Shown: piece by piece, positions 12,221-19,290 of the stretch
How positions within the stretch are numbered: position 1 is the first letter of the stretch
How the letters are laid out: the number at the start of each line of letters is the position of its first letter
NCBI RefSeq assembly: GCF_004010195.1
Contig: NC_057754.1
Coordinates: forward strand, 989,293 to 1,023,877
Direction of reading: 5' to 3'
DNA length: 34,585 nucleotides
Origin: Chiloscyllium plagiosum
Taxonomy: Eukaryota
Notes under the pieces: generated by a model
Databases searched by the model: none
What the model saw: the letters and a program-made list of their open reading frames with translations, nothing else
Told to the model about the DNA's origin: nothing
Program-made: the position numbers and the translations under genes

Positions 12221-12288
12221 TGGCAATCAGACATACTAATCAGTCATTGGGTAAGTCAGACTGGGGCAGTAAGTGTCATCACTTGCCA
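12221..12288 (-). ncRNA. SNORD31: Box C/D snoRNA U31
   Basis: Minus strand TGGCAA-GTGATGA...TACTGCCCCAGT-CTGA...TGACTGA...CTGA-TTGCCA; 6-bp terminal stem; guide antisense to 28S ACUGGGGCGGUA as in human U31 (one U:G). Confidence 0.92.
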
Positions 12289-12634
12289 GAACAAAGCAAG
12301 CACTCATCTTCACCACACTCTAGGTTCAGGAAGATTTCAGGGAAGGAGGTTGGGAGTTACACCCATGCCCCTCCAGAATGACAATAAGGGACAGGGTGAA
12401 CTCAGCTAATTGGAGTTTGATCAGTATAATTTATGTGAGGAACCAAACTCAGAAGGCAGCTGTCAGATCATTTCAGAGCCCAGAGATCAGAGGATATAAA
12501 AGGCACAGATCACTGAGAAACCTACCTGGGTTTTTTAAGAAGATTTTGAAGTCAGCCACATCTATAACGAAGGAGAGAAAGATCAGTACACAGCTGGTGC
12601 TTCCCCACAACAATCCAACCCCTACTGTTTTACA

Positions 12635-12712
12635 CTGCATCAGATATTTTTGTGACATCAGAAATTGTTCAGGTGAACGAAACTCCACTTTAAGAATATC
12701 ATCAGACTGCAG
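12635..12712 (-). ncRNA. SNORD30: Box C/D snoRNA U30
   Basis: C box CTGATGA, guide GGAGTTTCGTTCA, D' CTGA, C' CTGATGT, D CTGA, stem CTGCA/TGCAG; D box ~77 nt from the next acceptor; lies between U29 and U31. Confidence 0.85.
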
Positions 12713-13030
12713 CATTAAAGAGCACTCCTCAGGAGGAACTCCTTTCTCCAGTGACCCACATCTGTTCTGAAAGGGCTTCAGTCACTGTTAAGGCATTGAG
12801 ATGTGCAGCATTTTGTAGCCACATGACCTTGGACACCAGCCCCCACAGCATTCCCCACCTCCCTTCCACATGGAGGACCATCAGCCTACATCCCATGTAC
12901 AGAGCCTTTGAACCACAAACACTCACCAGGTCAGGACAAGTCCACCATCTTATCTCAGGCTGAAAGAGAAGGAGAAAAGGATGGTTAGGAACTGAAGCCA
13001 GTACTGCCTTTGGTCTGAAGCGCAGCCTGG

Positions 13031-13099
13031 AGTCACTCAGGGTGTTCAATATCTTTTCACACAGGGTCAAAGTGAGCTAAGAATCATCATCACCAGACT
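13031..13099 (-). ncRNA. SNORD29: Box C/D snoRNA U29
   Basis: GTGATGA...TAGCTCACT-TTGA...GTGAAAA...TGAACACC-CTGA, stem AGTC/GACT; closely resembles human U29; D box ~76 nt from acceptor. Confidence 0.9.
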
Positions 13100-13686
13100 G
13101 TTCACAGAAAACAGCAATGTCCCCTTTTGAGAAGAGCCTCCAGGCTGCAGCCTCAAGCCAAGAAACACTGATTGTCCCTTTTGTTCAGGAGCAGACCACC
13201 CGCCCACTGAAGGATGGCCAAGTCCTGAAGCTGTGATTCCCCTGGGAGTCAGTGGGTTCAACATCACTTGGACTGGACTAGTTTGTTTGGGGGAAGGTGG
13301 GAGGGGGAGCCATGATGGGAGAAACTCACTGAATAGCAGTGGAAGGAGTGGGAAGAATAGAAGGCAAAGATCCTCACCCACTGCACCACAGTGTACAGAG
13401 CTAGGGACAGAGTGTAACACCAGGGAACTGTTCAGGTGCAGCAGTCACCTTCCAGAGTGGTGTCTGTGGACCCACCTCTTGGGAAACTGGTGTAGACCAA
13501 GGCACAGCACTCTCATCACAGCTCAACCAAAACAGAGGACACTGCTCATTGCACCAGGAAGACCACTCACCTGATGTGTCTGGACACCAGCTGTCTTCAG
13601 TCACCTGGAAAAGAACGCAACAGCATTGGAAAGAAGCACTCCCCTGCACACTCCCCAACCCAGCATGTCCATTGACGCAGCTACAT

Positions 13687-13812
13687 TGTCCCATCAGACT
13701 GTTTTGGAAAACAAGCAATCCTCATTTCACACTGAGAGAGACAGTGGGTTCACCTTTGCAGGTTCTGCCTCTACACAGCATGTAAGACTGGAGACTAATC
13801 ATCACAGGGACA
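13687..13812 (-). ncRNA. SNORD22: Box C/D snoRNA U22 (18S pre-rRNA processing snoRNA)
   Basis: ~126 nt; C box GTGATGA, GTCTTAC, conserved core AGAACCTGCAAAGGTGAACCCACTG, D box GTCTGA; terminal stem TGTCCC/GGGACA. Confidence 0.92.
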
Positions 13813-14445
13813 AAAAAAACCCCACTTCCGGGATTCTTTTGGGTGGTGGGGTCGCAGGAGGAGAAGTTCAGCTGAGACACTGTTGGAAAGGCTAGAGGAC
13901 AAAGATTCAACAGGCACTTGTAAAAGGTATGAACAAAGCCTGAATTAAGTCAAAGGGTGGTTGGAAACGTGAAACAGAGGCCACGATCCATGATCATCCT
14001 CAATGGCAGTGCAGGATAGAAAAGGCTTCAGTGGCTTTGTTCTTAATGTGTATATTTTTAAAAACAGTTAAGGGACTAATTGCTGATCTGAGTCAGCTAT
14101 GACCAAGAGGAAAACTCCTCGCATGGTCTGACTTGAGTTTCAACAGTTTCAATCTATTGTGGATAACCAGAGTTGGCTTGGACACGATTCCAACCATATT
14201 ACAGGGATTTGGTACCCCCTCTGCACAGTGAAATGTAAACACCCCCCACCCCAAGAAACCAGACTCCAGGCTGGGCCTTCAATGTGCATTAGGAACAAGA
14301 ACTGCTGGCAGCACTAGATCAGGTTTCTGCTAAGAAAAGGGAATCACTCACCAGATATACACTTCAGAGTCAGACCTGAAACAGAAAACAATCAGATAAA
14401 TAGCTGCAGGCTGATATCAGGGAACAACCCTGGGAAAGGCTAGCT

Positions 14446-14533
14446 GGTTTGATCAGGGCTTTGGTGATTTCAATGCATCATCGACAATGTCGTCCGCCCA
14501 TAGGCCAACACCTGTTTATCATCATTTCAAACC
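14446..14533 (-). ncRNA. Unassigned box C/D snoRNA, predicted 18S rRNA guide
   Basis: GGTTTGA-A-ATGATGA...CGGA(D'?)...CGATGA(C')...TCACCAAAGCC-CTGA-TCAAACC; perfect C and D boxes, 7-bp terminal stem, D box ~77 nt upstream of acceptor at 14376-14377. Confidence 0.85.
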
Positions 14534-15828
14534 ACAGGTACTGCTGTTCCAGAATTAAACCATGTTACGTGAACGTGACAAACCCAGAGAATGCAGTGAT
14601 GCTAACCCATCATCCCCCCTGCTGGTGAACTCCTTACTACAGTCACTTGAGCTGATTGGGAGGATCACCCAACCTCACTGGATCACTTCCAATCAGTCGG
14701 TAACTATTCTGTATCACATGAGGGAAGATTAATACCTCAGCACCTCGCAGCTGTTAACACAACCAGGCTGAATTCAGCACCCACCTGCTTGGGGGGCCTG
14801 GAGGACTGTTTTGCTTATCCCAGAAACCTTCACTTCCCCCATCTCCTGCATTTATCCATCCTGACATCAGTCCAGGTCATGTCCAGCTGTCCTATAAGCT
14901 AGCCAGTAAGGGTCAGTAACCTGTACATCCAGCCCACTGCAGCCTGGACTTCCTCTGTTCTTGCACACTTCAGAACACCACTGCACTGTGGCTCGGAATC
15001 AGGTTCAGACAAACAAGACTTCATTCCAAAACATCTGGAGCAGGCCAGCTCCCAGCAGCTGCCCCACAGCCAGATCACAGCTCAGAGCATAGACATTGAG
15101 ACACTGATGTCCTATCTTTGAAGGCATGTTGTCCTCCTGAAGTTAATTCAGCACTGACCACAGGGATTATCCATTCAGGATGGGTTCTAGTGTACCCTGA
15201 TGGAACTCACCAGAGTGGTTGAGCAAATTTTAAGTGGTCACTTGACCAGCAGTAGGAAGGAGATGGGCAGATTTAGCCAATAGAGTAATGTTGTGCTAGA
15301 AAAGCACAGCAGGCCAGGCAGCATCTGCGAAGCAGGGGAAAAAACACAAATCACAAAAAGAAAAAAAAAAATCAACATTTAGGGCAAAAGGCCTTGATGA
15401 CGGGTTTTTGCACAAAACGCAGGTTCCCCTGCTCCTCAGATGTTCCCTGACCTGCTGCGCTTTTCCAGCGCCCCACTCTGATCTCCAGCATCTTCAGTCC
15501 TCACTTTCTCCTAGATTTAACAAATACACAATCACCCCCTTTTGTCAATTAACATCCCAGGGCAGTCAACTAGAGCAACGACTTCTGAATTGGTAGAATG
15601 GGAGTCGCAACCCCCAAACCCATCAGTAAAAGCACAGATTTGACCATCTTGGACAACAGCAGCCCCAGGAAAGCAGAACCCTCCCTCTTCCTGAACATTC
15701 CTACCTGAGCAAGGAGGAACTTCAGTACTTGCTGCAAGGTTACAGTGCAGGACAGAATCTGTCGAGACAAAAAGATTGATGTTAACTTCGACAGCCAACA
15801 GCACAGAGAGAGCAGAGAATCTATTGCT

Positions 15829-15899
15829 GCTCTCAGTCCAAGTTAGGCATCAACTTGAATTCAGATATATGCTTGTCTGTTTTTAGATCATCACTGAAA
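15829..15899 (-). ncRNA. SNORD27: Box C/D snoRNA U27
   Basis: GTGATGA...GACAAGCATAT-AT-CTGA...TTGATGC...CTGA; guide antisense to 18S AUAUGCUUGUC (Am27 site); D box ~73 nt from acceptor. Confidence 0.92.
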
Positions 15900-17665: not shown

Positions 17666-17746
17666 AGTGCTACTCAGCTAAAAACTTCAAAGTTTCTACA
17701 TGGAATATGCAGAAAGAGAGAGTTCATCTATCATCTTTGTAGCACT
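17666..17746 (-). ncRNA. SNORD26: Box C/D snoRNA U26
   Basis: 8-bp stem AGTGCTAC/GTAGCACT, C-like AGATGA, guide TGAACTCTCTCTT antisense to 28S AAGAGAGAGUUCA, D' CTGC, D CTGA. Confidence 0.88.
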
Positions 17747-18734: not shown

Positions 18735-19120
18735 CATAAGGAAAGCACATGGCAGAGGGAAGGGGGAGAGAATATTAAGGAAAGCACATGGCATAGGGAA
18801 GAGGGAGAGAATATTTAGGAAAGCAGATTGCAAAGGGAAGGAGGGAGAGAATATTTAGGAAAGCAGATTGCAAAGGGAAGGAGGGAGGAGGGAGAGAATA
18901 TTTAGGAAAGCAGATTGCAAAGGGAAGGAGGGAGAGAATATTTAGGAAAGCACATGGCAAAGGGAAGGGGGAGAGAATATTTAGGAAAGCAGATTGCAAA
19001 GGGAAGGGGGAGAGAATATTTAGGAAAGCAGATTGCAAAGTGAAGGGGGGATATTTAGGAAAGCAGATTGCAGGGGGGAGGGGGGAGGAAGAGAAAGAGG
19101 TATTTAGGAAAGCTGATGGG
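18735..19120. repeat. Purine-rich ~39-40-bp minisatellite (~9-10 copies) in host intron 1
   Basis: Repeating gagagaatatttaggaaagcagattgcaaagggaagg. Confidence 0.9.
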
Positions 19121-19203
19121 AAAGGGAAAGTGAAAAAGGAAAACCCCTATAAATGAACCGTTGCCCGTGGTGGGACGGGAGCCCGGTTTGCAAGCAGCAG
19201 CAG

Positions 19204-19290
19204 CCCTCGTTCTCAGAACACCGAGTAAAGCTCTAATCACAGGGAGGGTCATCACAGGTCTGTGACTGGTAGTGCTCATCATCGAGAGGG
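19204..19290 (-). ncRNA. SNORD25: Box C/D snoRNA U25
   Basis: C box ATGATGA, guide TCACAGACCTGT (antisense to 18S ACAGGUCUGUGA, Gm1490 site), D' ATGA, C' GTGATTA, D CTGA; lies in intron 1. Confidence 0.92.

Follow-up and report, generated by a model that had tools for sequence, protein, structure and literature searches.

The stretch of DNA analysed here (the window, 34,585 nucleotides of Chiloscyllium plagiosum) carries at 14446-14533, on the minus strand, an element that looks like a box C/D snoRNA. The locus raises the question of whether this is an unassigned guide in the place of SNORD28, as an earlier note had it, or an RNA that already has a name. Our analysis points to the known NET1 of the snhg1 (UHG) cluster, whose 10-bp guide likely directs fibrillarin to 2'-O-methylate U248 of 18S rRNA as in frog and zebrafish, and we put the probability of this reading at about 0.92. 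Box motifs, terminal stem, spacing to the intron end, register of the pairing and order of the cluster were observed here, and the processed RNA and the methylation were shown in print for the orthologues.

The gene with its terminal stem occupies 14445-14534 of the minus strand; boxes, stem and guide are seen here, and the identity comes from published NET1. The C box ATGATGA (14525-14519) fits the consensus perfectly, and the D box CTGA lies at 14456-14453. Both boxes were found as the earlier note described them, and so was the C'-like box (ATGATGC, 14481-14475). The 7-bp terminal stem that it reported holds within 14446-14533 and reaches 8 bp once one further pair is counted. At 14483-14496 (minus strand) we infer a D' box, probably degenerate, and after it a short hairpin (GAC/GTC) within the RNA; this stretch holds the GGACG(A/G)CA motif that frog and zebrafish NET1 also have. 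The RUGAUGA C box, CUGA D box and closing terminal stem of the class are all present at 14445-14534. When a C box, a D box, a stem of 6 bp or more and a guide of 10 bp or more were required jointly, the 9-kb cluster gave a single match and 200 dinucleotide-shuffled controls gave none. The overall fold was no better than that of shuffles (z -1.0); C/D RNAs usually fold no better than shuffles. A DNA search of the 3.56 Gb genome found the locus in a single copy. The search with a 25-nt motif demonstrates uniqueness only, and is circular because the motif was taken partly from the window itself. The feature at 14446-14533 is confirmed as a real intronic C/D guide.

The minus strand from 12.2 to 19.3 kb is the snhg1/UHG snoRNA cluster. 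SNORD26 (17669-17742), SNORD22 (13688-13810) and SNORD31 (12221-12289) were recognized by Rfam above the gathering score, and SNORD27 (15829-15899, 12 bp to 18S A27) and SNORD29 (13032-13095) below it. SNORD25 (19203-19289) gave a weak Rfam match (E 0.36) and has a 13-bp guide to 18S G1443. An element at 12632-12715, not named by Rfam, has a 12-bp guide to 18S A1340 and is taken as SNORD30. All of them lie on the minus strand, in the order SNORD25, 26, 27, a likely relic treated below, NET1, 22, 29, 30, 31. The host intron of NET1 is predicted, from sequence only, at 14376-14784 (minus strand), with a donor-like CAG/GTGGGT near 14785 and the acceptor TTTCAG/ at 14376 (slashes mark the junctions). 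The predicted acceptor AG falls 77 nt past the D box, inside the 70-90 nt of the class. The claim that neighbours share this spacing stands for SNORD26 (70 nt), SNORD27 (74), SNORD22 (89), SNORD29 (77) and SNORD30 (78); SNORD25 and SNORD31 gave no clear value.

Several other features of the window were recorded. The places that NET2 and a second SNORD31 occupy in X. tropicalis correspond to 12290-12560 and 13100-13580 (minus strand). C-box-like motifs lie near 13519 and 13270, and no convincing snoRNA was found there in a search that lacked the 3' part of 28S rRNA; the same limit applies to the search between SNORD30 and SNORD31, which found no NET2 equivalent. The intron after SNORD25 contains a pyrimidine-rich tandem repeat with units of about 30-40 nt (18760-19150). 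A long open frame on the plus strand (482-1804) carries a Glyco_transf_49 domain (E 5e-71) and is presumably a B4GAT1-type glycosyltransferase exon.

The genome's own rRNA served as the target for the guide; five 18S copies were located by pattern and one full-length copy (L007) was used. The guide (14458-14467, minus strand) forms ten Watson-Crick pairs through its positions 2-11 with 18S 245-254, which puts U248, the equivalent of human U286 and Xenopus U252, at D+5. This alignment agrees with the middle U of CUUUGG that the earlier note had predicted by the D+5 rule. Of the 10-11 nt of complementarity that it gave, ten pairs were found and the eleventh is absent, because the base preceding GCUUUGG is A, both in the full-length copy and, as far as the printed context shows, in four of the five 18S copies. 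Among the 419 CTGA sites of the window the NET1 guide ranks first for the U248 target (-16.4 kcal/mol, the next -13.5), and no duplex at 18S C1348 was among its top sites. Complementarity of at least 10 nt to rRNA beside D or D', which characterizes the class, is therefore present at this guide. Taken alone it is modest evidence, since 6 of the 419 sites reach at least 10 bp in 18S or 5.8S, four of them outside known snoRNAs. The 15-mer of guide plus D box has 82 matches genome-wide, and a C box stood beside none of the 12 inspected (69 other matches outside the window were not in the inspected set). For the D' box, no good duplex was found in 18S, 5.8S or positions 24-1888 and 2139-2325 of the 3401-position 28S model.

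The rDNA is fragmented in this assembly (L004 2309-2697, L007, L008, L015 and L016): one 18S copy is joined to an inverted 28S piece, and the 28S copies examined are incomplete. With the L007 18S copy, the SNORD25 duplex includes a G-U pair in the region of position 1444 (AACGGGUC), which may be a variant of the assembled copy.

The name NET1 came from published tables. In PMC7668251 the zebrafish site SSU_286, a high-confidence methylation site, is assigned to the D-box guide of NET1. The pairing printed there leaves position 1 unpaired and places the middle U at +5, and U287 is given as a +6 modification; the authors suggest that the site helps to fold expansion segment 9es3b-c. The zebrafish host gene is listed in the order SNORD25, 26, 27, NET1, 29, 30, 31. 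In PMC6984369 the RNA appears as mgx18S-U252, that is NET1, between SNORD28 and SNORD22 of X. tropicalis, in the order 25, 26, 27, 28, NET1, 22, 31, 29, 30, NET2, 31. The same paper traces three non-mammalian C/D RNAs of this kind back to Makarova and Kramerov 2009. It reports processed RNA and Um252 in X. tropicalis, neither being detected in X. laevis, for which PMC8797249 in contrast prints the guide RNA and gives a mean RiboMethSeq score of 0.32 for Um252, a partial methylation. Neither Xenopus paper detected a human counterpart of the methylation, and PMC6984369 reports no NET1 expression in human, in line with the earlier note. Sequences corresponding to NET1 are listed in PMC6984369 for zebrafish, fugu, lizard and opossum, and a sister RNA, NET3, is described in PMC3349704 as specific to vertebrates other than placentals. 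The main text of PMC11880993 does not mention NET1. At the level of titles and abstract openings no report of NET1 in cartilaginous fish was found.

Homology to NET1 was judged by an unscored comparison, made by eye, with two orthologue sequences given in print. The final 17 nt are identical to those of X. laevis NET1, and 22 of the final 25 nt match zebrafish NET1. In the centre, GGACGACA is the same in frog and agrees with zebrafish at 7 of 8 positions, so that GGACG(A/G)CA, outside the guide, is common to the three RNAs. A small hairpin starts with this motif, and its middle pair is A-U both here and in frog but G-C in zebrafish. The 5' third is divergent. Because the matches lie outside the antisense element, they indicate descent and not merely a common target. 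The element shares with NET1 the human-U286 equivalent at +5 of a D-box guide, a location past SNORD27(/28) within the SNORD25-31/22 cluster, and this similarity, seen by eye and unscored, outside the guide, which covers the central motif, the hairpin and the bases on either side of the guide.

By the standard C/D pathway, the predicted intron at 14376-14784 would be spliced out of the host transcript and trimmed down to NET1; the C/D core proteins would assemble on the released RNA, and fibrillarin would methylate U248, which faces guide position 5 in the duplex. The mechanism is not a new one. Methylation of U248 in this species is probably partial, as the frog score of 0.32 and the short duplex make plausible.

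The alternative that survives best is a NET1 orthologue that is weakly active or silent here, leaving U248 little methylated or unmethylated. A duplex limited to 10 bp and mismatched at position 12 would fit this, and so would the low score of the X. laevis site (about 0.32 in one study, undetected in the other) and the decayed look of the neighbouring SNORD28-like element. However, perfect C and D boxes, a retained 8-bp stem and 77-nt spacing, and a guide core that does not differ from that of frog and fish suggest selection. We consider a weak or silent NET1 unlikely, though it deserves more weight than the readings below.

A further reading is a SNORD28 that switched its target or, closer to the earlier note's own framing, a new lineage-specific guide in the SNORD28 slot. 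One intron upstream of NET1, at about 15038-14966 of the minus strand, we found what is probably a decayed SNORD28; roughly two chances in three would describe our confidence, judged from sequence features. Two CTGA boxes stand there 35 nt apart. The first, as a D' box, has a 12-bp guide (two G-U pairs) to 18S A1340, ranking third of 419 sites by duplex energy, and the second, as a D box, has a broken guide to C1348, ranking 26th of 419. The box pair is the best of 141 CTGA pairs, but narrowly (-25.1 versus -23.8 for SNORD30) and in a test picked post hoc. An AG lies 78 nt past the second box with a branch-point-like motif ahead of it, and sequences resembling splice donors occur near 15210 and 14785; an exon is predicted at about 14891-14785, which would put the relic and NET1 in separate introns. 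The C box is poor, no clear stem was seen, and 14966-15038 gave no match in Rfam. Gapped-alignment scoring was unsupportive: of 237 sites, the D guide was not among the best 6, while the D' guide scored 15 and a plus-strand control site 16. The ranking by duplex energy is more favourable, but it was chosen with the data already in view.

In PMC6984369, SNORD28 of X. tropicalis directly precedes NET1 and targets C1353 and A1345; from the zebrafish minimal list of PMC7668251 SNORD28 is missing (0 occurrences). A genome-wide search for the SNORD28 family here found none, in a weak search that scored 65 of about 967,000 candidates. The intact SNORD28 guide pattern matched at 9 places in the genome, with RTGATGA upstream in none of the 9 and a degenerate TGAnGA in one. 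SNORD28 may have been lost from this genome, and the relic suggests that the C1391-equivalent methylation was lost in this lineage.

A switched SNORD28 or a new guide could draw on this failure to find SNORD28 in so limited a search, and on the fact that, from SNORD27 to SNORD22, NET1 was the only C/D snoRNA detected in an intact state. Yet the frog carries both RNAs side by side, the separate upstream relic has guides for both Xenopus SNORD28 targets, the motifs outside the guide match NET1, and the SNORD28 model (RF00085) gave no Rfam match to 14446-14533. This reading is already largely refuted by the published NET1 tables, and we hold it to be very improbable. The lack of resemblance to U28 that the earlier note remarked on, and its view of an intronic guide other than SNORD28, hold on the boxes, the stem, the acceptor spacing and the missing SNORD28 match. 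Its assignment to the SNORD28 slot is probably wrong, because X. tropicalis has both RNAs and the likely relic sits upstream here. A chance arrangement of boxes within an intron, for which the ten-base complementarity beside CTGA at four sites outside snoRNAs and the 82 matches of the 15-mer, with no C box at any of the 12 inspected, might speak, is refuted by the syntenic position and the experimentally supported orthologues, besides the empty shuffles, and is the least probable reading of all.

With the locus read as NET1, the finding is real and not new, since the RNA was already described in frog and zebrafish; its cluster position and target are likewise known in print. The earlier note had allowed that it might already be described in fish or frog, and had said that a named family would remove the novelty. 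"Unassigned" thus does not apply to an RNA with a name whose methylation was measured in zebrafish and Xenopus. The Rfam search that was to reveal such a family did not do so: Rfam 15 scans of the locus gave no significant match at gathering or E-value thresholds (best E about 1). This exposes an annotation gap, and scans therefore keep flagging NET1 as unassigned. What is left as new is NET1 in a shark, of which titles and abstract openings gave no earlier report, the shorter 10-bp duplex and the possible loss of SNORD28.

The result adds one species to a snoRNA apparently lost by placental mammals and may deepen its vertebrate origin. The suggestion of an ancestral guide lost in mammals fits the published distribution for the human lineage, but the loss is not mammal-wide, because PMC6984369 reports such a sequence for opossum. 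One scenario, which we rate a little short of even odds, is that NET1 and the U286-equivalent methylation arose in the jawed-vertebrate ancestor and were lost only in placentals. The shark would then be the mirror case, with NET1 kept, SNORD28 decayed in place and the C1391-equivalent methylation lost.

Weak Rfam matches to snoZ196/R39/R59 (RF00134, E 1.9) and SNORD24 (RF00069, E 0.95) cover the boxes and a few guide bases; they reach about 21 bits, where the gathering scores are 55 and 41, and were treated as chance. SNORD28 (RF00085) shares with NET1 here the host gene, an adjacent intron and the class, and differs in target: it directs methylation of 18S C1391 in human (C1348 here), and in Xenopus also of the A1383 equivalent, whereas NET1 here pairs at U248. 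From the published NET1 the shark RNA differs in its canonical C box (ATGATGA versus AGGAUGA in frog and fish) and in a duplex of 10 bp where the zebrafish table has 12, the shortening being due to an A at guide position 12 in place of the G of frog and fish; the species is absent from the published NET1 tables, in the portions examined. With NET1/mgx18S-U252 (PMC6984369, PMC7668251, PMC8797249) it shares the host cluster, the slot after SNORD27/28 and before SNORD22/29, the D-box guide, the target U and its register, the 3' end, and the central motif with its hairpin.
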